Made by a program: the position numbers and the translations under genes
Part shown: piece by piece, positions 1 to 29,501 of the stretch
Numbering within the stretch: position 1 is the stretch's first letter
How the letters are laid out: the number at the start of each line of letters is the position of its first letter
Source: Actinomycetota bacterium
Lineage (GTDB): Bacteria; Actinomycetota; UBA4738; HRBIN12
Length of the DNA stretch: 64,000 nucleotides
Direction: 5' to 3'
Assembly: GCA_036280655.1 (NCBI GenBank)
Contig: DASUQI010000020.1
Coordinates: forward strand, 86,049-150,048
Notes under the pieces: generated by a model
What the model was told of the DNA's origin: nothing
What the model saw: only the letters and a program-made list of their open reading frames with translations
The model's database searches: none

Positions 1-997
1 GGACGCGCTGGCCGGCGTCGAGGCGGGGCGGCGGGGAGGGTTCGGGCTGGTCGTCGGCGTCGATCGCACCGGACACCGGGGGGAGCTCGAGGCGGCGGGC
101 GCCGACGTGGTCGTCGGCGACCTTGGCGAAGTGGTGGTGGATGTCTCCCCGCGGTCCGTCCGCGACCTGCCCGACGCGCTCGCGAGGCGCGACGAGATCC
201 GGATGCGGCTGAGCGGGCGACCGCCGGCCGTGTTCCTCGACTACGACGGGACGCTCACGCCGATCGTCGAGCGGCCGGAGGACGCGCGACTCCCCGATGC
301 GGTCCGGCGCGCCCTGGAGCGCCTCGCATCAAGGCGGACGGTCGCCGTCGTCAGCGGACGCGATCTCGCCGACGTTCGCCGGATGGTGGGAGTCGACGGC
401 CTCGTGTACGCGGGGAGTCACGGCTTCGACATCGCGGGTCCCGGTGGGCTCGCCGAGCAGCACGCGGTCGAGCTCCTTCCGGAGCTCGACCGGGCCGAGG
501 AGGAGCTCCGGCCGCTGGTCGAGCCGGTCCCGGGGGCCCGGCTCGAGCGCAAGCGCTTCGCGATCGCCGTGCACGTTCGCCAGGTCGACGAGCAGGACGT
601 GCCGCGCGTCGGGACGGCGGTCGATCGCATCGCCGGCGCGCACCCGCACCTCCGGAAGACCGTCGGCAAGAAGGTGTTCGAGCTCCGCCCGAACGTGGAG
701 TGGGACAAGGGTCGTGCGGTGCTCCGGTTGATGGATGTGCTCGGACTCGATCGCGCGGACGTCGTGCCCGTGTACGCGGGTGACGACGTGACCGACGAGG
801 ATGCGTTCCGCGCCGTTCGAGATCGCGGGTTCGGTGTCGTCGTTCGGGGGGAGGACGATGACCGGCCGACGTCGGCCCGCTACTCGCTCGCGAACGCCGG
901 GGAGACCGTCGCGTTCCTGGAGGAGCTGGCGTCGCTCGGCGACGAGACGGCCACGCCTGGGCATCCCGCGGAACGTGACAGCTCGGGGGCGTCCTGA
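1..997 (+). CDS. otsB: Trehalose-6-phosphate phosphatase-like protein, 5'-partial. HAD-like C-terminal motif (DALAGVEAGRRGGFGLVVGVDR) is followed by a TPP domain (FLDYDGTLTP..., AVVSGRDL..., GDDVTDEDAF); the gene begins upstream of the window.
   Basis: Translating the 107..997 frame back to position 2 gives a continuous ORF with HAD signatures and a classical trehalose-phosphatase DYDGTL motif. It stops at TGA 995-997. Confidence 0.8.
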   Translation, partial: DALAGVEAGRRGGFGLVVGVDRTGHRGELEAAGADVVVGDLGEVVVDVSPRSVRDLPDALARRDEIRMRLSGRPPAVFLDYDGTLTPIVERPEDARLPDAVRRALERLASRRTVAVVSGRDLADVRRMVGVDGLVYAGSHGFDIAGPGGLAEQHAVELLPELDRAEEELRPLVEPVPGARLERKRFAIAVHVRQVDEQDVPRVGTAVDRIAGAHPHLRKTVGKKVFELRPNVEWDKGRAVLRLMDVLGLDRADVVPVYAGDDVTDEDAFRAVRDRGFGVVVRGEDDDRPTSARYSLANAGETVAFLEELASLGDETATPGHPAERDSSGAS

Positions 998-3424: not shown

Positions 3425-3438
3425 GGGACCTTCTGCCC
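3425..3438. promoter_or_regulatory. Weak DosR-box-like site (GGGACCTTCTGCCC) 50-65 bp upstream of the hsp20 start.
   Basis: The half-site GGGACC is perfect and the second half is degenerate. The position is appropriate for an activator site. It is compared with the stronger palindrome at 14520-14545. Confidence 0.25.
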
Positions 3439-3489: not shown

Positions 3490-3987
3490 ATGAAGCTTGC
3501 GGTGTACGACGAGATCGGAGAGCTCGAGCGCCGCATGGACGACCTGATGCGTTCGTTCTTCGGCCCGAGGATCCGGCTCACACGACCGGTCCTGCCGCTG
3601 TTCGTATCCAAGCCGTTCGTGCCGGTCACCGACGTCTTCGTTCGCGACGAGGACCTCGTGGTCCGCGTCGAGTTGCCGGGCATCGAGCCCGACGACATCG
3701 AGGTCACGATCGAGGGCGGATACCTGGTGATCCGTGGAGAGCGGAAGCGGGAGGAGGAGGTCAAGGAGGAGGCGTACTACCGGCTGGAGGCCGCGTACGG
3801 CACCTTCGAGCGGTTCATCCCGCTCCCCGAAGGGTTCGAGGAGCACGAGATCGAAGCCCTCTACACGGATGGGGTGTTGGAGGTGATCGTTCCTGCGGCC
3901 GCCAAGGCGCTGGAGCCTCACGAGCCGAAGAACATCCCGGTCAAGACGACCAAGCCCGCCGATCAGCAGGCGAAGAAGGTCGCGTAG
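3490..3987 (+). CDS. Hsp20/alpha-crystallin family small heat-shock protein.
   Basis: A GAGGAGG RBS lies 7 nt upstream of ATG 3490. The alpha-crystallin domain shows in FVPVTDVFVRDEDLVVRVELPG...YGTFERFIPLPEGFEEHEIEALYTDGVLEVIVP. Confidence 0.9.
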   Translation: MKLAVYDEIGELERRMDDLMRSFFGPRIRLTRPVLPLFVSKPFVPVTDVFVRDEDLVVRVELPGIEPDDIEVTIEGGYLVIRGERKREEEVKEEAYYRLEAAYGTFERFIPLPEGFEEHEIEALYTDGVLEVIVPAAAKALEPHEPKNIPVKTTKPADQQAKKVA

Positions 3988-4056: not shown

Positions 4057-4167
4057 TTCTGTTCACGGATGGCCCTTCGATCGCCGGGCCGGACGGCCCG
4101 GAACGGCGGGATCTGCCGGTGCGACGATCTGCACGGAGGCTCTTCGTCGAGCCTGAGGAGGTGCGTC

Positions 4168-4653
4168 ATGTCGACGACCGAGTTGGACGCGGAGATCCGT
4201 CACCCGCAGGCGGTAACGGAGGTCCCTCAGCGGGTCGGAGCATCGAGATACCGGTTCGCGGCGGTCACCGTGTGCAGCGTCTGGGTGGCCCTCGCGGCAG
4301 CGAGCATCTGGTCGCCGGATCTCGTTTCCGGCACCGATCAGACACACGTGCCGATCGCCGCGTTCAGTGACTGGTTCTACGCGGTGATCGCGACCGGACT
4401 GGTGCTCATGGCGTTCAGCCGCCGGACGCCCGACGTGGGACGTTCGTCCTGGGCGGCCTTCGCCTTCGCGATCTCGGCCGTCTGGCTCGTCGTCGCGATC
4501 GTCAGCATCTGGACCCCGGACCTCGTGTCCGGCACCGACCCGACCCACGTGCCGATCGGCGCCCTCGTGAGTCCCATCGCCGGGGTGCTCGCCACGGCGT
4601 TCGCCGCGGTGTTCGTCGCCGGCAGCGGGGGCGGAACGGGGACGTCGGCCTAA
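4168..4653 (+). CDS. Hypothetical integral membrane protein with an internal tandem duplication (IWSPDLVSGTDQTHVPIAA versus IWTPDLVSGTDPTHVPIGA).
   Basis: A GAGGAGG RBS precedes ATG 4168. GC3 is high. There are four predicted TM segments, and two roughly 55-bp DNA segments (4307-4362 and 4508-4563) are near-identical. Confidence 0.6.
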   Translation: MSTTELDAEIRHPQAVTEVPQRVGASRYRFAAVTVCSVWVALAAASIWSPDLVSGTDQTHVPIAAFSDWFYAVIATGLVLMAFSRRTPDVGRSSWAAFAFAISAVWLVVAIVSIWTPDLVSGTDPTHVPIGALVSPIAGVLATAFAAVFVAGSGGGTGTSA

Positions 4654-4706: not shown

Positions 4707-4964
4707 TCAGGAGCCCGTAGCAGCCCACGCACGTAGGTTCTCGACGTGCGCGAGGGGCTCGGCCGCGTGCGGACAGTCGAGCGGGTCCTCACACGACGGG
4801 TTGCCCTCCATCGTGAAGAAGTTGAAGCGGCACGTGTCGCAGAAGACGTCGAGCTCTTCGGGGAGGTAGGGGCAGTCCCCCCACGCGCACGATCGCTCTC
4901 CTTCGCCCGTCGCGAAGTCGAAACCACACCCGGGACACCGACGGAACCCATCCCACCTCGCCAT
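4707..4964 (-). CDS. Small Cys-rich protein with four CxxC-type pairs (CPGC, CAWGDC, CDTC, CEDPLDC) suggesting a double zinc ribbon. Function unknown.
   Basis: A GGAGGTG RBS lies 6 nt before ATG at 4964. GC3 is high. It is located immediately 5' of hypE on the same strand. Confidence 0.55.
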   Translation of the reverse strand: MARWDGFRRCPGCGFDFATGEGERSCAWGDCPYLPEELDVFCDTCRFNFFTMEGNPSCEDPLDCPHAAEPLAHVENLRAWAATGS

Positions 4965-5052
4965 CTCGATCACCTCCACCCCTATGGGTACGCCCAGCGC
5001 TCGGACGCGTTCAGGGCCGGAGTGCCCCCTTGGGACGGGTCCGTCGGACCGG

Positions 5053-6114
5053 TCAGCAGATCCGGGGCAGCTGATCGCCTGCGAGCATGATCAGCGGCCG
5101 GGTCGTGCCGAGTCCAGTCCTCACGCTGACGCGCGGTGGACCCTCTTCGACCTCGCCGATCACCGCCGCGTGGGCGCCCAGGTCCAGCACGTGAGCTGCA
5201 GCGACGACCGGCTGCACGTCCTGCGGCGCCACGATCGCGACCGCCACCCCTTCGTTCGCGACGTAGAGGGGATCCAGGCCCAACATCTCGCACGCCGCCC
5301 GCACGGGCGGAAGGACGGGGATCGCGGATTCCTCGGCCACGATCGCGACTCCGGACGCCTCCGCGAGCTCGTTCAACACGCTCGCGACCCCTCCGCGGGT
5401 CGCGTCGCGCAGGCAGCGGACGTCGCCGGACGACAGCATCGCGTGGACGAGTTCGGTGAGCGGCGCGCTGTCGGACGCGAGGTCACCCCCGAAGGCGATC
5501 TCCTGACGCCGGGACATCACCGCGACCCCGTGCGAGCCGACGGGTCCCGTGACGATCACGCGATCGCCGGGACGGGCCCGCTCGGGCCCCACCTCGACGC
5601 CATCGGGGACCACGCCGACGCCCGCGGTCGTGACGAACAGCCCGTCGGCTCCGCCCTTCTCGACGACCTTCGTGTCTCCGGTCACGATCGTGACGCCGGC
5701 CCGTTCCGCGGCGTCCGCCATCGAGGCGACGACCGCTCCGAGCGTCTCCATCTCCAGCCCCTCCTCGATGATCAGGGCTGCGGAGAGGAACAGGGGACGG
5801 GCCCCCATCATCGTCAGGTCGTTGACCGTGCCGTTCACTGCGAGCTCGCCGATGTTCGAGCCGGGGAAGAACTTCGGCGTCACGACGAACGAGTCCGTCG
5901 AGAAGGCGAGCCGGAGGCCGTCGACCTGGACGACCGCGGCGTCGCCGAGTCGCGCCAGTTCGGAGGTGGGGTCGCCGAGGATCGGCACGAACAGCTCGCC
6001 GATCAGCTGCGCGGACAGCTTCCCCCCGCTGCCGTGACCGAGCACGACGCGCTCTCCGGGCGGCAACGGCACGGGACACCGCAACGCGAACTCGCGGACG
6101 GCTTCGTCGGTCAC
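5053..6114 (-). CDS. hypE: Hydrogenase maturation protein HypE (AIR-synthase-like carbamoyl dehydratase).
   Basis: The GTG start ([16 protein letters not shown]...) overlaps the hypD stop as GTGA. PurM-like motifs are present and the protein ends in a C-terminal ...PRIC. Confidence 0.9.
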
Positions 6115-7217
6115 GCCCGCACCTCCTCTCGCCGCCTGCCGGCAAGGAAGTACGCCGCGCACGCCCCCTCGCTCGAGACCATCGGTGCCCCGAGGGGAGA
6201 CTCCGGGGTGCACAGGGTTCCGAACGCCGGACAGTCGTGCGGCTTCGCTCGCCCGACCAGCACCTCGCCCGCGATGCAGATCTCCGACTCAGATGCCTGG
6301 ACGCCGTCGTCTCGCGGGAACCGGAGCTCGGCATCGTGCGCCCGGAAGGCCTCGCGGAGACGCAGCCCGCTCTTCGGGATCACGCCGATGCCACGCCAGG
6401 CACGGTCACACGTCTCGAAGACCTCGGACACGACGTCGAGGGCCGGCCGGTTCCCCTCACGCACGACGGCGCGAACGTACTGGTTCTCGACCTGATGACG
6501 GTCGTCTTCGAGCTGCGTAACGAGCATGCGGATCCCTTCGAGCAGGTCGAGGGGTTCGAACCCCGTCACGACGATCGGCACCCGGTGGTCGCGCGCGATC
6601 GGCTCGTACTCGGTCCAGCCCTGGATCGCGCAGACGTGTCCGGGAGCGAGGAACCCCTGGACGCGGTTCCCGGGGGAGACGAGGATCGCCATGATCGCCG
6701 GCGGCACCAGCACGTGGGCGACGAGCAGCGCGAAGTTCTCGATCCCGAGCTGCTTCGCCTGCCGAACGGCCATCGCGTTGGCGGGAGCGGTCGTCTCGAA
6801 CCCCACGGCGAAGAAGACGACGGTTCGGTCCGGGTTGCGCCGCGCGACCTCAAGCGCGTCGAGCGGCGAGTAGACGACGCGGACGTCCGCGCCGGCCGCC
6901 CGCGCCATGAACAGGTCCTCGCTCGAGCCCGGGACGCGCAGCATGTCGCCGAACGAGCAGACGATCGCGTCGGGACGCTTCGCGATCGCGATCGCCTCAT
7001 CGATCAGCGCGAGCGGCGTCACGCATACGGGGCAGCCCGGTCCGTGCACGAGTTCGAGGTCGTCCGGCAGCAGCTGATCGATGCCCTGGCGGATCAGGGT
7101 GTGCGTCTGCCCCCCGCAGACCTCCATGACGGTCCACGGCCGGCTGACCGTGCGGCCGATCTCGTCCAGGAGCGCACGAGCGATGCCGTCGTCGCGGTAC
7201 TCGTCCAGGTACTTCAT
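6111..7217 (-). CDS. hypD: Hydrogenase maturation protein HypD.
   Basis: MKYLDEYRD...CGGQTH...GPGCPVC...FETTAP...CPAFG are HypD signature motifs. The ATG overlaps the hypC stop as ATGA. Confidence 0.9.
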
Positions 7218-7519
7218 CAGCGTGTCCCGGTCGTCCCGGGCCGGTACTCGTCCGCCGGCACCCCGTCGGGGGTCTTCGGAAGGTCGATGTCCTCCAGGTT
7301 TCCCATCTCGGCCAGGAGCGCGTACGAGCGCGCCGCCTCCTCCTCGTCCACGACCGAGATCGCGAACCCGACGTGGATGACGACGAACGATCCGACGTCG
7401 ACCTCCGGCGCGTACTCGAGGCACGCGGCCCGTGTGATCCCGCCGAAATCGACCGTCCCCATCCGGATCCCGTCCTGCTGGTGGATGTCGACCACCTTGC
7501 CCGGAACTCCGAGGCACAT
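7217..7519 (-). CDS. hypC: Hydrogenase maturation chaperone HypC.
   Basis: The N-terminus [10 protein letters not shown] matches the HypC family at about 100 aa. A GAAGGGGG RBS is present. Confidence 0.85.
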
Positions 7520-7525
7520 GTTCGG

Positions 7526-9838
7526 TTACCCCCTTCCCGCGTTCGCCACGAGCACCTGGCCCAGCGCGATGCCCCCGTCTCCTACGGGAGCCTCCCGTGG
7601 GAGATAGACGTCGAACCCGACGGCCTCCAACCGGGTGACGAGATCCGAGGTCAGGAGGCTGTTGTTGAACACGCCGCCGGACAGGCAGACGCGCGACAGG
7701 CCGGTCGCTCCCCGGACCGCTCTGCACATCTCGAGCGTCGCGGCGGCCATCGTGCGATGGAAGCGACCGGCGACCTCGCCTGGCTGCCGGCCGCGCCGCA
7801 GGTCGCGCACCACCTCAGTGATGATGGGTCGTGGGTCGAGGGCGATGGCGCCCTCGTGGAGGCCGATGTCGAAGGGGTACTCGCGGGTCGCGCCGCCCTC
7901 GGCGGCCTGCTCCAGGAGGACCGCCGGGTGACCCTCGTAGGTCGAGGACTCGACGAGTCCGGCCAGGGAAGCCACCGCGTCGAAGAGCCGTCCCACCGAG
8001 GACGTGGTCGCGGCCGCCTCGTGCGAACGGATCTGCCGAAGTACCAGATCTACCTCGGTCGTTGGGGCGGCGAGGAGATCCACGGCGTCGTCGGCCACAC
8101 CCGCCTCGTCTGCGTGTGCGAGCGCCATCCGCCAGGGGGAGCGGACCGCCGCGTCGCCTCCGGGCAGGGCGACCGGCCGGAGACAGCCGGCGCGATCGGC
8201 GGCGGCGGCGTCGCAGACGAGGAACTCTCCTCCCCACGCCGTGCCGTCGGTCCCCAGCCCGAAGCCGTCGAACGCCACGCCGATCACGCGCCCCTCGAGC
8301 CGGTGCTCGGCGATCACCGAAGCGACGTGCGCGTGGTGGTGCTGGACCGCGACCGTCGGCAGGGCGAGCCCCTGCGCGAACCGCGTCGTGAGGAAGTCGG
8401 GGTGCAGGTCGTGGGCGACGAGCTCGGGCTCGAGCCCGAACACCCGCCGGTAGCGTTCGAGCGCCGCGGTGTAGGAGGCCAAGGCCTCCTCGGTCACGAT
8501 GTCGCCGATGTGCTGGGAGAGGTACGCCTTCCGGCCGGCCGCGAGGCAGAAGGCGCCGTGCAGCTCGGCTCCGGTCCCCAGGGTCGGGACGACGTCGGCG
8601 GCGAGCGGCAGCGGCGTCGGGGCTCGGCTCCGTGCCCTGCGCATCATCAGCTCACGACCTCGCCATACGCGTTCGACGCTGTCGTCGTAGCGCGCGACGA
8701 TCTCGCGGTCGTGGACCAGGAACGCGTCGGCGATGTCGCCGAGCCGGCGGAGTGCGTCGGCGTTCTCGATGCAGATCGGCTCGTCGCTGCGATTCCCGCT
8801 CGTCATCACGAGCGGGCGCCCCACCTCCCGAAGCAGGAGATGGTGGAGGGGTGTCGACGGCAGCATCGCTCCCTGACGGCGATGGCCCGGTGCCACCGAG
8901 GGTGCGAGCGTGCCCCGGTCCTCCACGAGGACGATCGGGGCGCGGGGCGACGCCAGAGCCGAGCGCTCGGCCGGGCTCGGTCGGAACCGCTCGCCCGCCT
9001 CGTCGAGGCCAGCGACCATCACGGCGAGGGGCTTGTCCGGTCGTCGTTTCCGCTCCCGGAGGAGCGCGACCGTGGCATCGTCGGTGGCGTCGCACGCGAG
9101 GTGGAACCCGCCGAGCCCCTTCAGGGCGACGATGCGTCCGTCGGCGAGCAGCCGCGCGGCCTCCTCGATGGGGTCTCCGGCGATCGGGTCACCCCGCAGA
9201 TCGACGAGCTCCAGGCGCGGTCCGCAGGTGGGGCATGCGATCGGCTCCGCGTGGAATCGCCGATCGGCCGGGTCGTGGTACTCGTTCGCGCACGCGGGGC
9301 ACATCGGGAACGCACGCATGCTGGTGCGTTCGCGGTCGTAGGGGAGCGCCTCGATGATCGTGAAGCGCGGTCCGCAGTCCGTGCAGTTGATGAACGGGTA
9401 CCGGAACCGTCGGTCGTCCGGGTCGAACAGCTCTCGCACGCACCGCTCGCACGTCGCGGCGTCGACCGAGACGAGGCGTTCCCCTTCGAGGCCGACGACG
9501 CTCTGGTCCACCTCGAACGTCTCGAACCCGATCGGCACGACGTCTCGCCAGCTGACCGACTCGACGCGGGCGAGTGCGGGCGCTCGGGTCTCGAGTGCCG
9601 AGCAGAACTCGACGAGGGCCGCGTCGCTCCCCTCGACGACGATCTCGACGACACCGCTCCGATTCCGGACCCAACCGGTCAGCCCGGCCTCGTCGGCCAA
9701 TCGCCACACGAACGGTCGGAAGCCGACGCCCTGCACGACCCCGTGGACCTCGATCTCGCGCGCGGAGGTCTCGCTCGCGGGTCCCGTCATCGTCCGTGTG
9801 GTCATGTCCCCACCATCGATGGCCGTCGACGCCTTCAT
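7526..9838 (-). CDS. hypF: Carbamoyltransferase HypF (acylphosphatase domain, two Zn fingers, YrdC and Kae1-like domains).
   Basis: [21 protein letters not shown] is an acylphosphatase motif, and CxxCxxxY pairs plus YrdC/Kae1 domains follow. The ATG overlaps the protease stop as ATGA. Confidence 0.9.
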
Positions 9839-10374
9839 CGTGCCTCCGGTTCATCGCCGGGTGCCGGGTCGCTCGACCCGTCGGTTGCGGCACCTTCGGC
9901 CTGCGAGGCAAGGCCGCGTGCCTCCCGGACGATCGCCTCCGTGAGGTCGGGGAGTGCCGCGCGCACCGCCTCGGACATCGGCCGGCCCGCGGCGGTTTCC
10001 TCGGCCTCCACCCCAACGACGACGAACCGAGGGACCGGGCCGACAGCCCTCGCCACGCCGAACGCCTCAAGCACGCCGAACCCGTGAGAGGACAGCGAAG
10101 AGTAGATCTCGGCGGGCAGGCCGTCCGGACCCGCCACCGCCCGGACGATCGAGCCCGATGGCCGGCCGGCCCCCGGCGTGCGGATCGCATCCACCACCAC
10201 GATCGCCTCGACCCCGGCCACGAGGTGCACGACGTCGAACGGGGCGGCCCGCGGCCGGACGTCGACGCCGGGGATCGACTCGAGCTCGCCTCGGGCTCGT
10301 TCGACCGCCACGATCCCGGCGGCGTCGTCACCGGCATCCGGGTTACCGCAACCGATCACCCGGACGACCGTCAT
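9835..10374 (-). CDS. Hydrogenase maturation endopeptidase (HycI/HoxW/HupD family).
   Basis: It is a 179-aa protein beginning MTVVRVIGCGNPDAGDDAAG. The ATG overlaps the large-subunit stop as ATGA. Confidence 0.85.
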   Translation of the reverse strand: MTVVRVIGCGNPDAGDDAAGIVAVERARGELESIPGVDVRPRAAPFDVVHLVAGVEAIVVVDAIRTPGAGRPSGSIVRAVAGPDGLPAEIYSSLSSHGFGVLEAFGVARAVGPVPRFVVVGVEAEETAAGRPMSEAVRAALPDLTEAIVREARGLASQAEGAATDGSSDPAPGDEPEAR

Positions 10375-14545: not shown

Positions 14546-14712
14546 GTCGCCGGTCACGCACCAGGCACGAGCCAGGTCTTCCGAGGAAGGACCTTCGGCC
14601 CGTCGACAGCCCGCCGAACGGCCCCTGGCGCCGGCGCGCTGCCTCGTCAGAGTGCAGCCCATGACCGGCGCCCCACGGGAGGGGCGCGGCGGATGGACCA
14701 AGGAGGTGCGTG

Positions 14713-15270
14713 ATGAAGAAGGCCTTCCCGATCGTGCTGATGGTGATCGGCCTGGCGTTCGTCGTGGGCGGCACGTACACGGTGTTCCGTGGCCTCGACG
14801 CTCGCGACCAGGTGCGAGAGGAGCTCCTTGCGCAGAACATCGTGACGCCGGAGGACGCCTCCATCCCCAACACGCAGGTGACGGACGCCGCCACCGCGGA
14901 GTCGATGGCGGACATCATCAACGTGCACGCACGCGAGGCGACGGGTGACCGCTCCTACGCGGAGCTCGGCCGGTACCTGACGCCCGACGGTGGGGACACG
15001 AGCGACGAGGCCGAGGCGCTGAAGGACTCCGAGGGTAACCCGGTCGCGAACCCCGTTCGGGATGTCGCGTTCACGGCGTCGGCGCTGCGGACGAGCCTGT
15101 ACGCGTCGATCCTCGCGTTCAACGTCGCGGACCTGGTGGTCGGTCTCGGCGTTGCGATCGTGGTGCTCGGCCTGGCCGTCGGTGGCATCGGCGTCGCCCT
15201 GGCGGCGCTGGCGATCCCGGCCCTGGCTCGCCGCTTCCACGTCCAGCCCGTGGCCGCACAGCACGGCTGA
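14713..15270 (+). CDS. Hypothetical membrane protein with an N-terminal TM, a periplasmic-type domain and a C-terminal Ala/Gly-rich TM, transcribed divergently from the hydrogenase operon.
   Basis: An AAGGAGG RBS lies 8 nt before ATG 14713. GC3 is high. Confidence 0.6.
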   Translation: MKKAFPIVLMVIGLAFVVGGTYTVFRGLDARDQVREELLAQNIVTPEDASIPNTQVTDAATAESMADIINVHAREATGDRSYAELGRYLTPDGGDTSDEAEALKDSEGNPVANPVRDVAFTASALRTSLYASILAFNVADLVVGLGVAIVVLGLAVGGIGVALAALAIPALARRFHVQPVAAQHG

Positions 15271-15343: not shown

Positions 15344-16705
15344 CTAGACGACGCCCTGATCGAGCATCGCGTCGGCCACCCGGATGAACCCCGCGATATT
15401 CGCGCCGTTCACGTAGTTCCCCGGCGTGTTGTACTCCTCCGCCGCCTCGAGGCACCGCTGATGTATCGACTTCACGATGTCCTTGAGCCGCGCGTCCACT
15501 TCCTCGCGGGTCCAGTGCAGGCGCTCCGCATCCTGCGTCATCTCGAGACCGGAGACCGCCACGCCTCCGGCGTTCGCGGCCTTGCCGGGACCGAACAGGA
15601 TCCCCTCGCCCAGGAACCGCTCGATGCCGTCGGGAACCGTGGGCATGTTCGCGCCCTCGCAGACCACGAACACGCCGTTGTTGAGCAGGTTCGCCGCGTC
15701 CTTCGCGTTGATCTCGTTCTCCGTGGCGCTGGGGAAGGCGCAGTTGGCGGGCACATCCCAGAGCGGGTTGGAGTCCGCCTGCGGGTCGGCGGGCGTGAAC
15801 GTCGCATCCGTGAATCGCTCCGCGTACTCGTGGATCCGCCCGCGACGCTCGTTCTTCAACGCCTTCACCCATCGCAGCTTCTCGAGGTCGATCCCGTTCG
15901 GGTCGTGCACGAAACCCCCCGAGTCCGACAGGGTGATCGGCCTGGCGCCCATGTCGATCAGCTTTGCGGTCGTGTACTGGGCGACGTTGCCCGACCCGGA
16001 GACGAGACATACCTTGCCCTCGAGCGCGTCGTCGCGCGTGAGGAGCATCTGCTGCGCGAAGTAGACGGACCCGTAGCCCGTGGCCTCGGGACGGATCAGT
16101 GAGCCGCCCCACCCGACACCCTTGCCCGTGAGTACCCCGCTGAACTCGTTCCTGATCCGCTTGTACTGCCCGAAGAGGTAGCCGATCTCCCGCGCCCCCA
16201 CGCCGATGTCCCCGGCGGGAACGTCGGTGTTCGGCCCGATGTGTCGTTGGAGCTCGGTCATGAACGACTGGCAGAACCGCATCACCTCGCCGTCGCTCCT
16301 GCCCTTCGGGTCGAAGTCGGCGCCGCCCTTCCCGCCGCCGAGGGGGAGGCCCGTCAGGGCGTTCTTGAACACCTGTTCGAAGGCGAGGAACTTGAGCATC
16401 CCCAGGTCCACGGTGGGCTGGAAGCGCAGTCCTCCCTTGTACGGTCCGATCGCGCCGTTCATCTCGACCCGGTAGCCCCGGTTCACTCGGATCTCGCCCG
16501 TGTCGTCGACCCATGGGACCCGGAACATCAAGACGCGCTCGGGTTCGAGCAGGCGCTCGAGGATCCGACCTTCGCGGTATCCGAGGTTGCGGTCCAGCAC
16601 GACGCGCAGCGACCCTAGGACCTCTGACACGGCCTGATGGAACTCGGGTTCGTGCGGGTTGCGTTCGATCAGGTCCGAGATGAGTCGGTCGACGTCTCCG
16701 TTCAT
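15344..16705 (-). CDS. gdhA: NADP-specific glutamate dehydrogenase.
   Basis: It has 453 aa with full-length GDH motifs (GPYKGGLRFQP, LPLGGGKGGADFDPKG, GSGNVAQY). An AAGGAGG RBS is present. Confidence 0.92.
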   Translation of the reverse strand: MNGDVDRLISDLIERNPHEPEFHQAVSEVLGSLRVVLDRNLGYREGRILERLLEPERVLMFRVPWVDDTGEIRVNRGYRVEMNGAIGPYKGGLRFQPTVDLGMLKFLAFEQVFKNALTGLPLGGGKGGADFDPKGRSDGEVMRFCQSFMTELQRHIGPNTDVPAGDIGVGAREIGYLFGQYKRIRNEFSGVLTGKGVGWGGSLIRPEATGYGSVYFAQQMLLTRDDALEGKVCLVSGSGNVAQYTTAKLIDMGARPITLSDSGGFVHDPNGIDLEKLRWVKALKNERRGRIHEYAERFTDATFTPADPQADSNPLWDVPANCAFPSATENEINAKDAANLLNNGVFVVCEGANMPTVPDGIERFLGEGILFGPGKAANAGGVAVSGLEMTQDAERLHWTREEVDARLKDIVKSIHQRCLEAAEEYNTPGNYVNGANIAGFIRVADAMLDQGVV

Positions 16706-16855: not shown

Positions 16856-18595
16856 TCAGACGGCGGTGTAAGGGAGGTAGCGGGGCTGCCACATCATCGC
16901 GTCCACGGCCTTCTCGAGCTCGTCGTCGCCGAGATGGCGGCCGACACCCTCCTCTCGCGCGGCTCTCGCGACCTCGATCGCGACCGCTCTGGAAACCAGG
17001 CGAAGGTCGGACTGGCTCGGATACAGCGCCCCATGTCGGAGTCGCTCGTCCGGCGTGGCAGCGGCCAACGCATCGCTCGCAACGAGGAACATCTCGTCCG
17101 TGATCACTCGGGCTTCCGCGACCACGGCCCCGAGTCCGATGCCGGGGAAACAGAAGGCGTTGTTCGCCTGGCCGATCAGGTGCGTCCGATCGCCGCGGAC
17201 GACGGCCTCGAACGGGCTGCCGGTCGCGACGATGGCTCGTCCCTGCGTCCACTCCAGGACGTCCTCCGGCCGGGCCTCGGTCTTGGAGGTGGGGTTCGAG
17301 AGCGGGAGGATCACCGGGGTGGGGGTATGGGCAGCCATCTCTCGGATCGCGGTCTCGCCGAACGCGCCGGGCGAGCCGCTCGTGCCGATCAAGAACGTCG
17401 GATGGACGCGCCGAACGACGGCCTCGAGCCCGTACCGCTCGCCGGGAACGAAGCCGTAGGTCGCCATGGCATCAGCTCCGAGTGCGAATTCCTCCTTGTC
17501 GGCGTCCAGTCGCTCGCGGCCGAGGTACGTCAGGCCGCGAGAGTCGAGCTGGACGATGGCGCTGTGGATGAGGTCCTCGGGCGCGCCCTCCCGGCGGAGC
17601 CGAGCCCGGAGGAGGCGTGCGATCCCGATCCCCGCCGCCCCGGCGCCGAGGAACACGGATCGCGACGCGGCGAGCGGCCCGCCCGTCACCCGAAGCGCCG
17701 ACGTGATCCCGGCCATCACGACCGCGGCCGTGCCCTGGATGTCGTCGTTCAAGCTCGTGATCCGGTGCCGGTAGCGATCGAGCAGGCGGATCGCGTTGTG
17801 CTGCTTGAAGTCCTCCCATTGGAGGACCGCGTGCGGGAAGACCTCGATCACGCCCTCGACGAAGGCCTCGATGAACTCGAGGTACTCGATACCCCGCAGG
17901 CGCGGGTGTGGATAGCCGAAGTAGTCCGGGTCGGCGAGCAGCGCCTCGTTGTCGGTCCCCACGTCGAGGGAGACGGGCAGCGTGAGCGCCGGATGGATCC
18001 CTGCTCCCGCCGTGTACAGCGCGAGCTTCCCGACGGGGATCCCCATGCCGCCGGCGCCCTGGTCGCCGAGCCCGAGGATCCGCTCGTTGTCGGTCGCGAC
18101 GATCAGGCGGACGTCATCGTGCCGCGCGTTCGCCAGCAGATCGGGGATCCGATCGATGTCGTCGGGAGTGAGCCAGAGTCCACGGGGCCTGCGCATGATG
18201 TGGCTGTATCCCTGGCAGGCGCGACCGACGACCGGCGTGTAGACGATCGGCATCAGCTCCTGGAGATGTGCGAGCAGGAGCGCATAGAACAGCGTCTCGT
18301 TCCGATCCTGGAGCGCTGCGAGCCCGATGAAGCGCTCGAGGTCGTCCCGTTTGCGGCGATTCTTGGCGAGCTCGAGCCTCACCTGCTCGTCGAGCGAACG
18401 GACCCGTGGAGGCAGGAGCCCGCGGAGGCCGAACATCTCGCGCTCCTCCTCGGTGAACGCGGTGTCCTTGTTGAGGAGGGGTTGCTCGAGGAGCTCATGC
18501 CCGCGCTGGTGAACCGGCACCGAACTCCGTCCCGTCCGCAGAGCGTCGACCCATGTGCGTTCGTCAGTCCGCTCACGCTCGATCGTCGCGCTCAT
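16856..18595 (-). CDS. maeA: NAD-dependent malic enzyme.
   Basis: The 579-aa protein shows malic-enzyme N-terminal, dinucleotide-binding and C-terminal regions (FNDDIQGTAAV, GAGAAGIGIA). The ATG overlaps the pntB stop as ATGA. Confidence 0.9.
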   Translation of the reverse strand: MSATIERERTDERTWVDALRTGRSSVPVHQRGHELLEQPLLNKDTAFTEEEREMFGLRGLLPPRVRSLDEQVRLELAKNRRKRDDLERFIGLAALQDRNETLFYALLLAHLQELMPIVYTPVVGRACQGYSHIMRRPRGLWLTPDDIDRIPDLLANARHDDVRLIVATDNERILGLGDQGAGGMGIPVGKLALYTAGAGIHPALTLPVSLDVGTDNEALLADPDYFGYPHPRLRGIEYLEFIEAFVEGVIEVFPHAVLQWEDFKQHNAIRLLDRYRHRITSLNDDIQGTAAVVMAGITSALRVTGGPLAASRSVFLGAGAAGIGIARLLRARLRREGAPEDLIHSAIVQLDSRGLTYLGRERLDADKEEFALGADAMATYGFVPGERYGLEAVVRRVHPTFLIGTSGSPGAFGETAIREMAAHTPTPVILPLSNPTSKTEARPEDVLEWTQGRAIVATGSPFEAVVRGDRTHLIGQANNAFCFPGIGLGAVVAEARVITDEMFLVASDALAAATPDERLRHGALYPSQSDLRLVSRAVAIEVARAAREEGVGRHLGDDELEKAVDAMMWQPRYLPYTAV

Positions 18596-21707: not shown

Positions 21708-21977
21708 TCGGTGCCCGGGTGTCCCCCCGGGCTCGGACCGTCGATCAGCGAGCGGTCCGACGGGTAGGTCGTGCGGGACCGGATGATCCTCGTGGCGGAG
21801 TGCTCTGCGGTGCCGGCCCCTGCTCCAGATGTGGTGGCGGGTCACCGGTGTCACCCCCTTCGAGACCTCTTCGGTCTCATCTGAAGTATCTGGTCGCACG
21901 GAGTCCCCGGAGGGGGTCATCCGGCCCAGCTTGCCTGGGCCACGCGGCGCTCGGGTGTGATGGCGCGGCCGTGGTCG

Positions 21978-23011
21978 TTACGTCTGGACCGAGCCCGGGA
22001 TCCCTCGCCAGTCGTAGGGGCTCACGTAGCTCACGAGCATCTGCACGTAGTTCGACCGGGCGTACGCGATGGGGTCGGGGACGTTCGCCTGGCTCGCGCT
22101 CCCCTTGAGCTGTTCGATGCTCGCGTAGTCGTGTTCCTCCAGCCACGCTCCGAGGCCCTCGAGGACCTTCCCCAGGTGCTCGGGGCCGTGACGGAACAGC
22201 GCGCTCGCCATCATCGTCACGTCGGCGCCTGCGAGCAAGAGCTTCACCGCGTCCTCGGCCGACCAGACGCCGGTGGTCGCCGCGAGCGAGCACGACACGC
22301 GTCCGTGCAGGATCGCGATCCAGCGCAGCGGCAGTCGGAGCTCGTCGCTCGTCGACAGCTGCAGCCGGGTGTCCACCTCGAGCGTGTCGAGGTCGATATC
22401 CGGCTGGAGGAACCGATTGAAGAGCACGAGCCCGTCGGCCCCGGCCTCGTCGAGCCGGCGTGCCATGTTCGCCATCGACGAGAAGTACGGCCCCACCTTG
22501 ACGGCAAGCGGGATCGTGATGCTCTCGCGGACCGCCGCCACGAGGTCGAGGTACCGGCGCTCCACCTCTCCACCACTCTCATCCGGATCCGATGCGACGA
22601 AGTACACGTTGAGCTCGAGCGCGTCGGCGCCGGCATCTTCGATCAGCTTCGCGTACCGGACCCAACCGCCATCGGTGGCGCCGTTCAACGAGCCGATCAC
22701 CGGGATCTCGAGCTCCTTGCGGCACGCCTCGAGGTACCGGAGGTACTCGTCGGGACCCGTGTTGTAGTCCTCGAGCTCGGGAACGTACGAGAGGGCCTCG
22801 GGGAAGGACTCTGCCCCTGTCTCGATCACGCGGTGGGTCTGCAGCTCGTCGTGTTCGATCTGCTCCTCGAACAGGGACTGCATCACGACCGCCGACGCAC
22901 CGGCATCCTGCAATCGCCGAAGGGTGTCGATCCTCGCCGAGAGGGTGGAGGCCGACGGCACCAGCGGGTTCGAGAGTTCGAGCCCCAGATAGGTCGTTCG
23001 AAGGTCCACGC

Positions 23012-23015
<4 letters not shown>
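21978..23015 (-). CDS. Dihydroorotate dehydrogenase-like (PyrD family, class 1 TIM-barrel flavoprotein), translationally coupled to PFOR.
   Basis: It is about 345 aa beginning MSVDLRTTYLGLELSNPLVPSAS..., a PyrD/DHPD-like fold. The ATG overlaps the PFOR stop as ATGA. Confidence 0.8.
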
Positions 23016-26632
<3,617 letters not shown>

Positions 26633-26721
26633 CGCTCCTCCTCACGGCAGGATGCGCGTGAGCGAGGCGCTTGGCCGAAGGCTCTCGACCCGTCGCCGGG
26701 GGGCCGTTCGGCCCCTCTCGC

Positions 26722-27402
26722 TCAGCCCTGGGACCCGGGCGTGGTCGTGTGTCGCGCGAGGTAGGCGGCCGCCTCGGCCCGCCTGGCCACCTCGAGCTTC
26801 GACAGGATGCTCGAAACGTAGTTCTTGACCGTCTTCTCGGCGAGGCTGAGCTCGTCGCCGATCTCCTTGTTCGTCTTGCCGTCGGCGACCAGCGAGAGGA
26901 TCCGCTCCTCCTGGGGTGAGAGCCGGGCTAGGCGTTCGTCCTTCATGAGGTGCTTGCCTCGGCGGAGGCGATCCAGTACCGAGCTCGTGACGGCGGGGTC
27001 GAGGAGGCTCTCGCCCTTCCCGACGGTCCGGATCGCCCGGACGAGCTCGCCGCCCTTGACCTCCTTCAGGACGTAGCCGGAAGCGCCGGCCATGATCGAG
27101 GCGAAGAGGGCCTCGTCGTCGGCGAACGACGTGAGCATCACGACGCGGGTGTTGGGGTGCTTGGCGAGGATCTCCCGGGTCGCCTCGATCCCGCTGCCGT
27201 CGGCGAGGCGCACGTCCATCACCACGACGTCGGGACGGGACCGGTCGGCCTCGTCGATCGCCTCTCGGACGGAGCCGGCTTCCGCGGTCACGACGATGTC
27301 CTCGGTCGCCTGGAGGAGCGCCCTGATCCCGCCTCGCACGACCTCGTGGTCGTCGACCAGCAGGATCCGGAGCGGCGGCTTCTTCGAGGACTTCTCCGGC
27401 AC
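26722..27402 (-). CDS. dosR: Two-component response regulator, NarL/LuxR family, closely resembling mycobacterial DosR/DevR.
   Basis: A receiver domain (LLVDDHEVVRGG...DVVVMDVRLADGSGIE) is followed by a LuxR-type HTH (LSPQEERILSLVADGKTNKEIGDELSLAEKTVKNYVSSILSKL). Many DosR-conserved positions are present. Confidence 0.9.
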   Translation of the reverse strand: MPEKSSKKPPLRILLVDDHEVVRGGIRALLQATEDIVVTAEAGSVREAIDEADRSRPDVVVMDVRLADGSGIEATREILAKHPNTRVVMLTSFADDEALFASIMAGASGYVLKEVKGGELVRAIRTVGKGESLLDPAVTSSVLDRLRRGKHLMKDERLARLSPQEERILSLVADGKTNKEIGDELSLAEKTVKNYVSSILSKLEVARRAEAAAYLARHTTTPGSQG

Positions 27403-27411
27403 GAGGGAATC

Positions 27412-27888
27412 CTACCCCCGGGGGGTGGAAGGCTCTCGTGCGTGCAGGTGTTCGGCGACGCCCTCGAGGAAGTCCTTGAGCGTGGCTTCGGCTACGCGGT
27501 GGAGCAGCGCGCGATCCAACACCCGGCCGACCACGCCCAGGGGGGCCTGGTAGCGGGCGCTGATCGACAACTGGGTGCGGGCGGACCCGAGCGCCGCCAG
27601 TTCGATGTCACCGTCGAGGCGCGGGAACAGCCACTGGGCCCCCGTCGCGCGCCAGGTGACGGGCAGGGCCATGACGGAGGATGTCCCCCGCGGTGCTCCG
27701 AGCTCGATCTCGACCTTCTTGTCGATCCGCCGACCCTCCGAGCCGAGACCGACCTCCGCCAGCAGTCGGTGCCCACGATCCTCCGCGGCCTCCAGCATGC
27801 CGGGTATCCACCTGCTCGGGTCGTCGAGCAGTCCCGCCCGGACGGCCTCGAACGGGAGAGCGAGCTCCACGTAGTAGCGCGCGAACAT
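27412..27888 (-). CDS. Hypothetical protein (about 159 aa, MFARYYVELALPFEAVRAGLLDDPSRWIPGMLEAA...), possibly SRPBCC-like.
   Basis: Only the C-terminal 159 codons of ORF 27412..28251 look protein-like. It ends 10 bp upstream of dosR-like. Confidence 0.5.
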   Translation of the reverse strand: MFARYYVELALPFEAVRAGLLDDPSRWIPGMLEAAEDRGHRLLAEVGLGSEGRRIDKKVEIELGAPRGTSSVMALPVTWRATGAQWLFPRLDGDIELAALGSARTQLSISARYQAPLGVVGRVLDRALLHRVAEATLKDFLEGVAEHLHAREPSTPRG

Positions 27889-27985
27889 GGCCCACACGAT
27901 GCGCGATGGCCGTGCGACGTCAACGGGGCGAACGGCCCGTGGTGTTCGGGACCTCGGCCTCCAGACCGTGCCGGGGGAGGGGGTG

Positions 27986-28423
27986 ATGATCCCGTTCATG
28001 GGGACACACGGTCGAACGGTGCTGGTGGTCGAGTCATTCGCGGCCGAGCGCGAGCGCCTGGCTGCAGCGCTCGAGGACGACGGGTTCCTTGCCCTCTTGT
28101 GCCCCGGCCCATCGGAACCCGACTCCTCGTGCATCGGTTCACGCGGCGGCGCCTGCCCGCTCGAGGCCGAGGCATCGGTCGTGGTCCTCGACATGAGCAT
28201 CGGGAGCGACGAGGCCATGTTGGGGACGCCGGCGGAAGACCTGCTGGGCATGTATCTGGAAGGCGGTCACCCGGTCGTCGCGCTCGACGATCATCGGCGC
28301 GGGGGAGAGCCGGGGCAACTGATCGCGATGCGGCGGCATCCCGAGACACGGGATCTCCTCGCCGCGGTACGCCGGTTGGCACCCGACGCCGACGCTACGA
28401 CCGCAACGGCAACTCGATCCTGA
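27986..28423 (+). CDS. Receiver-domain-like (CheY-fold) small protein with a degenerate acidic pocket (VLVVESF... VVVLDMSIG...).
   Basis: A strong GGGGGAGGGGG RBS precedes ATG 27986. GC3 is about 88%. The 145-aa protein overlaps the 3' end of the kinase gene convergently by 29 nt. Confidence 0.45.
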   Translation: MIPFMGTHGRTVLVVESFAAERERLAAALEDDGFLALLCPGPSEPDSSCIGSRGGACPLEAEASVVVLDMSIGSDEAMLGTPAEDLLGMYLEGGHPVVALDDHRRGGEPGQLIAMRRHPETRDLLAAVRRLAPDADATTATATRS

Positions 28424-29501
28424 CCGTCGTTCCGAGGCCCGGGGTCGAGTCGATCGAGGTGGTTCCTCCGAGACCGGCGGCGCGCCGCTCCATGTTGGCA
28501 AGCCCGTCGCCGCGCCGGACGCTTGCCGGATCGAACGCCTTCCCGTCGTCGTCGACCTCGAGCACGGCGGAACCGTTCCGCCGGTACAGCGACAGGCGGC
28601 ACGTTGCCGCGCCGGAGTGACGGCCGACGTTCGAGAGGGCCTCGCGCGCGAGCTGCACCACATCGCCGGCCACGTCGGCAAGTCTCGACGCGACCGCGTC
28701 GTCGAGATCGACCGCGGTCACGATGCCGCTCTTGCGCTCGAAGTCCTCCACGAGCGATCGAAGGGCCGCATCGAGCTGTCGGTCGCCGAGGATGCCGGGG
28801 CGCAGGCCGAAGATGTAGGTGCGCAGGTCGCGGATCACGCGGTCGAGTTCCGCCACCGCCGCCTCGATCCGCTCCGACGTCTCCTCGTCGGGGGAGCGAA
28901 GCGCCGCCCCCTGCAGCCCCATCCCGACGGCGAACAGGGCCTGGATGACGCCGTCGTGCAGCTCCCGGGCGATGCGCTCTCGGTCCTCGAGGACCCCAAG
29001 GCGCTCGACCTCCTCATAGAGGTGCGCGTTCTCGATCGCGACCCCCGCCTGGGACGCCAGGATCACGAGGGCCTGCTCGTCCTCCTCGTCGAACTCCGCG
29101 GCGTCTTGCTTGTTGGTGAGATACAGGTTCCCGAAGACCGTCCCGCGCGAGATTACGGGAGCACCGAGGAACGAGGTCATCGACGGGTGGTTCGGCGGGA
29201 ACCCGTGCGACAGCGGGTGGTCGGCCAGGACCGGGATCCGGATGGGACGCGGGTCCTCGATCAGCAACCCCAGGATGCCGTGGCCGGTCGGCGGGTCGCC
29301 GATCGCCGCACGCTGCTCGGGGGTGATCCCCGTCGTCACGAACTCGGCGATGAGGCCGTCCTTCCCCAGCACACCGAGCGCTCCGTACTGGGCATCCGTA
29401 AGATCGGCGGCTGCCTCGATGATCCGCTGGAGGACTGCCTGAAGGCTGAGCTCGGAGGCGAGCGTCAGCCCGGTACGGATCAGTTGGTCTCGTCGGTCCA
29501 C
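28395..29501 (-). CDS. GAF-domain sensor histidine kinase (single GAF + HisKA_3 + HATPase_c), DosS/DosT-like.
   Basis: A GAF domain (...FLGAPVISRGTVFGNLYLTNK...) is followed by RIARELHDGVIQALFAV (the H-box) and a HATPase G-box (GLGGTTSIDSTPGLGTTVRIELP). Confidence 0.85.
   Translation of the reverse strand: MDRRDQLIRTGLTLASELSLQAVLQRIIEAAADLTDAQYGALGVLGKDGLIAEFVTTGITPEQRAAIGDPPTGHGILGLLIEDPRPIRIPVLADHPLSHGFPPNHPSMTSFLGAPVISRGTVFGNLYLTNKQDAAEFDEEDEQALVILASQAGVAIENAHLYEEVERLGVLEDRERIARELHDGVIQALFAVGMGLQGAALRSPDEETSERIEAAVAELDRVIRDLRTYIFGLRPGILGDRQLDAALRSLVEDFERKSGIVTAVDLDDAVASRLADVAGDVVQLAREALSNVGRHSGAATCRLSLYRRNGSAVLEVDDDGKAFDPASVRRGDGLANMERRAAGLGGTTSIDSTPGLGTTVRIELPLRS

Follow-up and report, generated by a model that had tools for sequence, protein, structure and literature searches.

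We analysed a 64,000-nucleotide stretch of contig DASUQI010000020.1 (positions 86,049 to 150,048; assembly GCA_036280655.1) from an Actinomycetota bacterium of the GTDB lineage UBA4738/HRBIN12, hereafter the window. Positions 1 to ~36,000 of the window probably make up the core of a regulon of the DevR/DosR-OsdR type that serves a programme of reductant disposal. This part encodes a DevR/DosR-like response regulator, a sensor histidine kinase with a single DosT/DosS-like GAF domain, a group 3b [NiFe]-hydrogenase with its maturation proteins, pyruvate:ferredoxin oxidoreductase (PFOR), a transhydrogenase and an Hsp20 protein, and its ~12 boxed transcription units are preceded by copies of one palindromic motif. 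Since this shared operator motif is strongly enriched in intergenic regions, the clustering of these genes goes beyond chance. Genes were called by third-position GC bias, with start codons backed by Shine-Dalgarno sequences, and products were assigned by Pfam and NCBIfam scans of the whole window, in which the GC content is ~70% throughout. All genes named in a sequence-only reading, which had proposed a dormancy-regulon-like island within about 29 kb, were recovered in these scans.

Palindromic boxes precede the predicted target operons

The palindrome noticed in the sequence-only reading is real. It is a perfect 24-mer at 14520-14543 in the promoter region of hyhB, the first gene of the hydrogenase operon, and its core, GGGACCATGGTCCC at 14526-14539, is the sole exact GGGACN4GTCCC in the 64 kb. 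The degenerate form GGGNCN4GNCCC occurs 11 times, and eight of these exact matches lie in intergenic DNA, which makes up 10% of the window, as opposed to 1.1 expected from composition-matched intergenic simulations, none of which (0/500) reached eight. All eight intergenic boxes fall within the first 36 kb; no box occurs in the intergenic DNA (2.2 kb) of the final 28 kb. The informative pattern is the exact or one-mismatch degenerate box, counted in intergenic DNA only. Its commonest form, GGGCCG(A/T)(A/T)CGGCCC, equals the consensus AGGGCCGATCGGCCCT of the Streptomyces coelicolor regulator OsdR, a consensus that OsdR shares functionally with DevR (PMC5069765).

Two matrices were used to score the sites, one built solely from the published S. 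coelicolor OsdR sites, which come from another genus and are supported by electrophoretic mobility shift assays (PMC5069765), and one built solely from the boxes before hyhB in other genomes (lineage matrix). The best matches of the OsdR matrix in the window were GGGCCGAACGGCCC at 30243..30256, centred 88 bp before the ATG of the DUF6448-kinase operon (18.7 bits), GGGCCGTTCGGCCC at 26701..26714, centred 76 bp before the PFOR ATG and 8 nt past the regulator stop codon (18.3 bits), and GGGCCGGACGGCCC at 4086..4099, centred 76 bp before the gene at 4168 (13.9 bits). Lesser matches preceded hsp20, the membrane protein gene at 14710, a glyoxalase-family gene, a gene of the F420H2-dependent quinone reductase family (F420-family gene) and the gene at 35095. 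The hsp20 box, GGGACCTTCTGCCC at 3425..3438, is centred 58 bp before the ATG and scored 11.1 bits with the OsdR and 9.7 bits with the lineage matrix. Those of the last three genes, found with both matrices, are GGGGCCTTCGGCCC (33451-33464), AGGTCGAACGGCCC (35025-35038, centred 74 bp before the F420-family gene) and GGGCCGAAGGTCCT (35778-35791, centred 82 bp before the gene at 35095-35703). The lineage matrix recovered the same sites and added those of the transhydrogenase (pnt) operon, GGGTCATCCGGCCC at 21914..21927, centred 76 bp before the GTG at 21845, and of a glutamate dehydrogenase gene, where a weaker tandem box spans 16765-16801.

In the hyhB promoter, the primary box GGGACCATGGTCCC (16.3 bits with the lineage matrix) is centred 76 bp before the hyhB GTG and is accompanied by a secondary half-box at 14504-14517, 22 bp nearer hyhB, with a neighbour score above the 95th percentile. 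The same divergent intergenic region, shared with the gene at 14710, contains a second pair of boxes, AGGACCTTCGGCCC (14588-14601) and CCGCCGAACGGCCC (14611-14624). The regulator operon has tandem boxes 23 bp apart in its divergent promoter region, GGGGCGAACGGCCC (27925-27938) and GGGACCTCGGCCTC (27948-27961), with 44 bp between the centre of the proximal box and the ATG at 27888. Overall, a second, weaker box scoring above the 95th percentile of background was found 22-23 bp away from four of the 12 primary boxes, and helically phased Dev boxes have been described at -42.5 and -63.5 (PMC3177182).

The position of the boxes relative to the start codons is constrained as well. The distance from box centre to start codon is exactly 76 bp for hyhB, PFOR, the first open reading frame (ORF) of the pnt operon and the gene at 4168; it is 74, 82, 88 and 90 bp for four further genes, 58 bp for hsp20 and 44 bp for the regulator operon. 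With random placement in the same intergenic regions, four identical distances have a p of ~0.001, and seven distances within a 15-bp band a p of ~0.006. For comparison, S. coelicolor OsdR sites were reported at -81, -80, -99, -100 and -102 (PMC5069765), and hspX has its DosR box centred at -43.5 relative to the start of transcription (PMC13486717). A leader of ~33 nt would reconcile the 76-bp spacing with a box at -43.5, and the 44-bp case may then correspond to a leaderless transcript. Scans for sigma-70 promoters and T-tract terminators between 14.4 and 30.4 kb gave nothing above shuffled expectation. Taken together, boxes before hyhB, PFOR, hsp20, the pnt operon, the regulator operon and the kinase operon support the earlier guess of co-regulation, and their spacing and their occurrence in relatives agree with it.

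The response regulator resembles DevR/DosR and is encoded with a putative SRPBCC protein

The regulator, a 226-aa protein with REC and GerE domains (26722..27402, minus strand), was classed as DevR/DosR-OsdR-type by its Pfam domains and its similarity to DevR. Among all solved structures, its best match was M. tuberculosis DevR/DosR (3c3w; 194 bits, E = 1.7e-56), with 48.8% identity over 205 columns, followed by VraR (166 bits), NarL (112 bits) and DesR (105 bits). The comparison of DosR with NarL that had been proposed as a check therefore came out on the side of DosR when run on solved structures (194 vs 112 bits). In the alignment to 3c3w, the phospho-acceptor D54 and the residues T82 and K104 are conserved, as are Q153, K168, K179, K182, N183, R196 and R197, which form the DNA interface in the structure of DosR with RNA polymerase, where K179, K182 and N183 read GGGACT (PMC13486717). 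The recognition helix, LAEKTVKNYVS, is identical to that of DosR; DosR residues T198 and T205 are not retained. JGI attaches the label 'response regulator DevR' to metagenome proteins that share 88-100% identity with the regulator. Among the NCBIfam models, none for DosR matched the regulator, the top models being MadR, MctR and NarL, all below their cut-offs.

Upstream of the regulator gene and in the same operon lies a gene for a conserved 158-aa protein (27412..27888, minus strand) that falls into no Pfam family and has ~1350 homologues, all unnamed. A Foldseek search with its AlphaFold model (pLDDT 79) retrieved Bet v 1 proteins and the cyclase ZhuI at E-values down to 3e-6 and TM-scores of ~0.5, and the protein is therefore predicted to adopt an SRPBCC (Bet v 1/START/cyclase-like) fold. 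The model suggests a small-ligand-binding accessory protein at the place where mycobacteria have a universal stress protein (USP). Divergent from the regulator operon, a conserved gene for a 145-aa protein (27986..28423, plus strand), likewise without a Pfam family, is called at the same position in related loci (L081-L086); by eye, its product may resemble a degenerate receiver domain (VLVVE...VVVLDM).

The sensor kinase has a single DosT/DosS-like GAF domain

The kinase gene (28395..29501, minus strand; 368 aa) encodes GAF, HisKA_3 and HATPase_c domains. Its GAF domain matched GAF-A of DosT (2vzw) with 149 bits and GAF-A of DevS with 129-132 bits, and aligns with the proximal haem His (H149 in DevS) and the distal Tyr (Y171), 22 residues apart. 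The protein, whose sequence lacks a hydrophobic N-terminus, is predicted to be cytoplasmic. The GAF sensor kinase of the sequence-only reading was thus confirmed, while the two-GAF architecture implied by calling it DosS-like was not: there is one GAF (residues 18-165), HisKA_3 begins nine residues on at residue 174, and the ORF, from stop to stop, has room for no more than 394 aa, so that the tandem of GAF-A and GAF-B is absent. Homologues of the kinase (P0121-P0240) fall into two size classes, a single-GAF class of ~366-374 aa with 67-89% identity to the kinase over its full length and a double-GAF class of ~533 aa. By this comparison, the single-GAF kinases are a real subfamily and not truncated forms. 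The two classes are reminiscent of the DosS/DosT pair, yet the architectures differ. In the NCBIfam scan the kinase matched the MctS and MadS models, well below their cut-offs. Upstream of the kinase gene lies a DUF6448 gene (29640..30161, minus strand; PF20046, 168 bits).

A group 3b hydrogenase operon and its metabolic neighbours

The genes hyhB-hyhG-hyhS-hyhL-hycI-hypF-hypC-hypD-hypE form one long minus-strand operon running from 14456 down to 5053. It encodes the beta subunit HyhB (13341-14456; Fer4_22), the gamma subunit HyhG with an FAD/NAD(P)-binding and a DHODB Fe-S domain (12469-13344), the small delta subunit HyhS (11672-12472) and the large alpha subunit HyhL (10371-11675), followed by a HycI-like maturation endopeptidase for the large subunit (9835..10374; PF01750, 30.5 bits) and, by their Pfam domains, HypF (7526-9838), HypC (7217-7519; HupF_HypC), HypD (6111-7217) and HypE (5053-6114; AIRS/AIRS_C). 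The best structure matches of HyhL were the group 3b enzymes 5yxy and 9nez (Thermococcus kodakarensis and Pyrococcus furiosus soluble hydrogenase I, SHI) with 238 bits, compared to 186 bits for group 3c, 161 for 3a and 148-157 for 3d. The Ni-Fe motifs of HyhL are intact (L1 RICGICPVAY, L2 DPCISCATH), the top NCBIfam models for HyhL and HyhB are those of sulfhydrogenase alpha and beta, and the alpha/beta/gamma/delta layout matches group 3b. By these sequence comparisons the hydrogenase is classed as a four-subunit group 3b enzyme, in agreement with the earlier assignment of a group 3b hydrogenase with hypCDEF. Genes for the nickel insertion proteins HypA and HypB were not found in the 64-kb window.

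The coupling of PFOR to a PyrD-like flavoprotein was also recovered. PFOR (23012-26632, minus strand; TIGR02176, 1683 bits) and a dihydroorotate-dehydrogenase-like (DHOD-like) flavoprotein (21978-23015, minus strand; NF005741, 467 bits) are encoded by translationally coupled genes, the PFOR stop codon overlapping the start of the DHOD-like gene, and a comparable pairing has been noted in propionibacteria (PMC7650540).

Several genes within positions 1-29501 had gone unlisted in the sequence-only reading, namely those of a proton-translocating NAD(P) transhydrogenase, a malic enzyme, a glutamate dehydrogenase paralogue and conserved unknowns. The transhydrogenase operon (minus strand) is headed by a small ORF (21504-21845, starting with the GTG at 21845), followed by pntAA (20314-21489; AlaDh_PNT_N/C), pntAB (19998-20321; PNTB_4TM) and pntB (18592-20001; PNTB). 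After a gap of 71 bp comes the malic enzyme gene (16856..18520, minus strand; Pfam malic and Malic_M), which has no box of its own in 18521-18591 and is probably also under the box of the pnt operon. The glutamate dehydrogenase gene of the cluster (15344..16705, minus strand; ELFV_dehydrog) has a second copy at 52863-54224 (minus strand) with a product of the same length (453 aa) and 77% identity. Because only the in-cluster copy has an upstream box, weak and in tandem, its product is suggested to be a condition-specific isoenzyme.

Boxes and operons recur in related soil Actinomycetota

The closest hyhB relatives (63-78% identity) all come from metagenome-assembled genomes of uncultured soil Actinomycetota. 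The hyhBGSL-hycI-hypFCDE operon is conserved in them, with the order of the hyp genes and the position of hycI kept (L001-L022). Of 23 related actinobacterial loci, 17 have a box with at most one mismatch in front of hyhB, mostly at the same offset and usually followed by a second, degenerate box; among more distant, lower-GC loci the count is just three of ~55. In most relatives (L001-L012, L018-L022, L026) hyhB and a divergent nicotinate phosphoribosyltransferase gene have the boxed intergenic region in common, which lies ~100-230 bp upstream of hyhB; in place of the transferase gene the window has an unrelated gene for a membrane protein without a Pfam family (14710..15270, plus strand). 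In M. tuberculosis, a gene to be compared with this arrangement is Rv0573c, which we take to be pncB2. Rv0573c lies in the Rv0574c operon, which DevR controls (PMC3177182).

Around regulator homologues of 86-88% identity, both the gene for the 145-aa protein and the unit of 158-aa protein gene and regulator gene are kept (L081-L086). The box in the divergent regulator promoter is retained in L084 (18.7 bits), L085 and L086, as is the one just after the regulator gene. In L085 and L086 the PFOR and DHOD-like pair adjoins the regulator gene, in L016 it is found near hyhB, and in L084 a formate/nitrite transporter gene follows the regulator gene. USP and CBS genes flank the two-component system in L084 and L085; in L085, two USP genes, a CBS-BON gene and a two-GAF kinase gene surround the same core of SRPBCC, regulator, PFOR and DHOD-like genes. 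Within 10 kb of hyhB, the closest relatives keep only the hyh-hyp operon. By these locus comparisons, the 30-kb block is not conserved physically, and the logic of the regulon appears to be.

Other genes of the window

The hsp20 gene (3490..3987, plus strand; PF00011, 73 bits) encodes the alpha-crystallin that had been predicted, and its 165-aa product is called with the same ATG on many metagenome contigs. It is followed by a gene for a membrane protein with an internal duplication (4168..4653, plus strand), called as a 161-aa gene on metagenome contigs and matching only DUF805 weakly; the duplicated segments are SIWSPDLVSGTDQTHVPIAAF and SIWTPDLVSGTDPTHVPIGAL, and another high-scoring box-like site lies at 4437-4450 within this coding region. 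Just downstream of hypE, a Cys-rich ORF of 85-90 aa (4707-4979, minus strand) is likewise called on metagenome contigs and has neither a Pfam family nor a counterpart in the hyh loci of relatives.

At the left edge of the window, a trehalose-phosphatase gene (2..997, plus strand; PF02358, 186 bits; TIGR00685, 172 bits), whose 5' end lies beyond the edge, is followed by a gene for a GH65 glycoside hydrolase/phosphorylase with the N-terminal, middle and C-terminal GH65 domains (994/1234-3402, plus strand). The GH65 N-terminal domain is encoded from about nucleotide 1000, and no ATG, GTG or TTG occurs before 1234, which corresponds to residue 74 of that domain. A CTG at 994, where relatives have ATG, overlaps the TGA stop codon of the phosphatase gene as CTGA (994-997) and is the probable GH65 start; it may represent either a start used by termination-reinitiation or the loss of a start codon. 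M. tuberculosis OtsB1 (Rv2006), with which this locus had been compared, is one fused polypeptide. Phosphatase and GH65 domains are indeed present here, but as two genes in different frames that meet at the CTGA junction and not as a single fusion. When the junction was compared over 80 related loci, the two were separate genes in ~33 and fused in seven of ~40. A frameshift in the G5 run at 985-989, which would make the locus a broken OtsB1-like fusion, was considered and dropped, because relatives mostly have separate genes with an ATG at the position of the CTG. The promoter of this locus and an N-terminal HAD-like part lie outside the window.

Beyond the kinase operon, ABC/FtsX transporter genes lie between the DUF6448 gene and the glyoxalase-family gene (33573-33926, plus strand), which lies past the range covered by the sequence-only reading. 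The F420-family gene (34436-34957, minus strand; PF04075, 24.4 bits with a cut-off of 22) was identified as anticipated, although outside the stated range of 1-29501, and a gene without a known family follows at 35095-35703 (minus strand). A polysaccharide pyruvyl transferase gene (36002-37249) adjoins a gene for a large fusion protein (37237-39960, plus strand) with an N-terminal NAD_binding_4 domain, fatty acyl reductase-like, and a C-terminal AMP-binding domain, a domain order opposite to that of typical carboxylic acid reductases. At 42233-43056 (minus strand), a gene for an ArsR-type helix-turn-helix regulator is followed by an AHSA1/SRPBCC-family gene, the second pairing of a small SRPBCC protein with a regulator in the window. 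The right-hand part contains genes for the actinobacterial cell-division protein CrgA (54652-54900, minus strand), isocitrate lyase (61651-62949, minus strand) and a fragment of an ATP-dependent DNA ligase (63373-63999, plus strand), none of them with an upstream box. The presence of CrgA confirms that the DNA belongs to the Actinomycetota. Rfam and tRNA scans of the whole window gave no match.

Discussion

The arrangement of boxes, regulator, kinase and predicted targets is consistent with the following model, built by analogy with DosS/T-DosR and OsdKR. The haem-GAF kinase would be activated when O2 leaves the haem, or by NO, CO or a redox change, and the activated (deoxy-haem) kinase would phosphorylate the NarL-family regulator. 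A regulator dimer, or cooperative tandem dimers, would bind GGGNC-N4-GNCCC boxes overlapping the -35 region and presumably activate, rather than repress, about a dozen neighbouring transcription units. Predicted targets are the SRPBCC-regulator operon, the DUF6448-kinase operon, hyhBGSL-hycI-hypFCDE, the PFOR-DHOD-like pair, the small ORF with pntAA-AB-B, the in-cluster glutamate dehydrogenase gene, hsp20, genes for small and membrane proteins and the F420-family reductase gene. PFOR would oxidise pyruvate to acetyl-CoA, transhydrogenase, malic enzyme and glutamate dehydrogenase would shift electrons between NADH and NADPH, and the NAD(P)H-linked group 3b hydrogenase might vent electrons as H2, in the direction taken by M. 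smegmatis Hyh. Hypoxic induction and H2 evolution are features that we infer for this regulon from these analogies. The DHOD-like flavoprotein is a candidate for the link from ferredoxin to NAD(P).

A number of points weigh against a regulon of this kind. Every regulatory link in the model is a motif prediction, and both the motif, a palindrome, and the genome (70% GC) are GC-rich. When GGGACN4GTCCC was searched with two mismatches over the whole window, 81 matches were found with 110 expected. The exact match at 4033 belongs to an extended inverted repeat downstream of hsp20 and probably works as a terminator; the box at 26701, located after the regulator stop codon, could double as a terminator hairpin. 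The regulator is less similar to DevR (49% identity) than OsdR is (61%), VraR follows DevR by just 28 bits, and orthology was assessed from 64 kb of the genome. The kinase lacks GAF-B, and USP and nitroreductase domains were absent from the Pfam and NCBIfam results for the window; USP genes and genes for Acg-type nitroreductases are hallmarks of the mycobacterial regulons. The closest relatives do not have the regulator, hsp20 and glutamate dehydrogenase genes within 10 kb of hyhB. Electrons from PFOR-reduced ferredoxin would also need a route to an NAD(P)H-linked hydrogenase.

These points bear on three other explanations. The one we take most seriously, although we consider it unlikely, accepts a real regulon with DevR/OsdR-like wiring that answers another signal (NO, CO, redox, stationary phase or development), the hydrogenase serving uptake or NADPH poising. 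Group 3b enzymes are bidirectional, and the cluster is rich in NADP(H) enzymes, namely transhydrogenase, malic enzyme and glutamate dehydrogenase. The single-GAF kinase differs from DosS and DosT, and in Streptomyces the activating signal of OsdK is still unconfirmed while OsdR controls development and stress genes (PMC5069765). However, the GAF domain of the kinase is closest to the O2/NO/CO sensors DosT and DosS, with His and Tyr kept, and PFOR is an oxygen-sensitive, typically anaerobic enzyme. The sole experimentally studied DosR-controlled group 3b enzyme evolves H2 in hypoxia (bioRxiv 10.1101/2023.09.11.557286).

Co-location without co-regulation, with the palindromes being generic GC-rich hairpins such as terminators or repeats and the regulator controlling something else, is improbable. 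Each box can fold into a GC stem of 5 bp with a loop of 4 nt, and some, at 26701 and 4033, lie just past stop codons; the loose pattern is not enriched window-wide and the block is not conserved in relatives. Against this, the boxes at 14526, 14588, 27925 and 27948 lie between divergent genes, in promoter regions where terminators would not be expected, and neither a T-tract terminator nor an Rfam element coincides with the boxes. Hairpins would also leave unexplained the fixed spacing of 74-90 bp before start codons (p ~0.001-0.006), the match to a matrix from EMSA-supported OsdR sites of another genus, the lack of boxes in the intergenic DNA of the last 28 kb and their retention before hyhB and the regulator operon in relatives. 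Least probable of all, and by our estimate very remote, is that the regulator is a NarL/VraR-like paralogue merely resembling DosR, so that the analogy misleads. The VraR score of 166 bits, 28 below that of DevR, the loss of T198 and T205 and the NCBIfam ranking of MadR, MctR and NarL with no DosR model would fit such a paralogue. Yet N183, a Thr in VraR, is kept here, the recognition helix of NarL differs, the neighbouring kinase has a haem GAF of the DosS/T type and is not a membrane sensor, the local operator is a Dev/OsdR box, and the JGI label of near-identical proteins is DevR.

Among known systems, OsdK/OsdR of S. coelicolor (SCO0203/SCO0204; PMC5069765) is likewise a DevR-type two-component system of a non-mycobacterial actinobacterium. 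As in the window, its regulon (SCO0167-SCO0219) combines the GC-rich box AGGGCCGATCGGCCCT with autoregulation and boxes clustered over tens of kb around the regulator, at similar distances of ~50-100 bp upstream of start codons. In contrast, the OsdR cluster contains USP genes, the nitrate reductase Nar2, pyruvate phosphate dikinase and a nitroreductase, and lacks hydrogenase, PFOR and transhydrogenase; identity to DevR is 61% for OsdR and 49% for the regulator described here; and osdR-osdK form one operon, whereas here the kinase belongs to a unit with DUF6448 and the regulator follows the SRPBCC gene. In M. smegmatis, we assume hyh, hspX and dosR to be neighbours (MSMEG_3926-3947). According to Berney et al. 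2014, as cited in a preprint, the group 3b hydrogenase Hyh of this species is activated by DosS/T-DosR and evolves H2 (bioRxiv 10.1101/2023.09.11.557286). The M. smegmatis system thus shares with the window a DosR-type regulator, a four-subunit group 3b hydrogenase, alpha-crystallin (HspX) and central-carbon enzymes, and differs in its two-GAF kinases and in a regulon with a phosphoenolpyruvate synthase-like gene, PfkB, USPs, Fsq and Tgs in place of PFOR, Pnt, malic enzyme and glutamate dehydrogenase. In that species both the regulation and the evolution of H2 have been demonstrated by experiment, whereas here they are predictions from sequence.

M. tuberculosis DevR (Rv3133c) has the same domain architecture as our regulator and identical DNA-reading residues, and its Dev boxes, with tandem boxes about two helical turns apart, share the GGGAC-N4-GTCCC core of the hyhB site. 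In both cases another gene precedes that of the regulator in the operon, a USP gene (Rv3134c) there and the SRPBCC protein gene here. Unlike the window, the M. tuberculosis regulon has no hydrogenase or PFOR, and its kinases DevS and DosT carry GAF-A and GAF-B instead of a single GAF. The hydrogenases of P. furiosus (SHI) and T. kodakarensis consist of the corresponding four subunits, alpha to delta, with matching domains, but the enzyme of the window is bacterial and scores far below the archaeal equivalog cut-off (259 bits vs 700). Control of a group 3b hydrogenase by DosR has already been published for M. smegmatis, as has a box cluster around the regulator gene for OsdR of S. coelicolor. 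The variant features are the conserved single-GAF sensor, the SRPBCC gene in the regulator operon and the new predicted targets; PFOR, Pnt, malic enzyme and the glutamate dehydrogenase paralogue were not found reported as Dos-type targets in a narrow literature search that was not directed at PFOR.

The regulon proposed for the window does not overturn current understanding; the result is wholly computational and one that specialists would expect, and its value is ecological and comparative. A bolder version, to us a possibility but a doubtful one, is that in a widespread soil lineage in which the regulator is 86-100% conserved across many metagenomes, the single-GAF kinase and the DevR-type regulator switch on a complete module converting pyruvate to acetyl-CoA plus H2 in anoxic pores. 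This module would consist of PFOR, the DHOD-like flavoprotein, transhydrogenase, malic enzyme, a dedicated glutamate dehydrogenase and the Hyh hydrogenase, with the DHOD-like protein as the link from ferredoxin to NAD(P) and PFOR and Pnt as new classes of DosR targets. If true, these bacteria would be a regulated biological source of soil H2. The cluster may serve as a compact model for reductant disposal by supposedly aerobic soil bacteria in anoxic microsites, and a naturally minimal, single-GAF haem sensor of the DosS/DosT type could help to show the role of GAF-B. If the prediction holds, the Dos-type repertoire would gain PFOR, transhydrogenase, malic enzyme and a glutamate dehydrogenase paralogue, and DosR-controlled hydrogen fermentation would extend from M. 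smegmatis to an abundant, uncultured lineage of soil actinobacteria.

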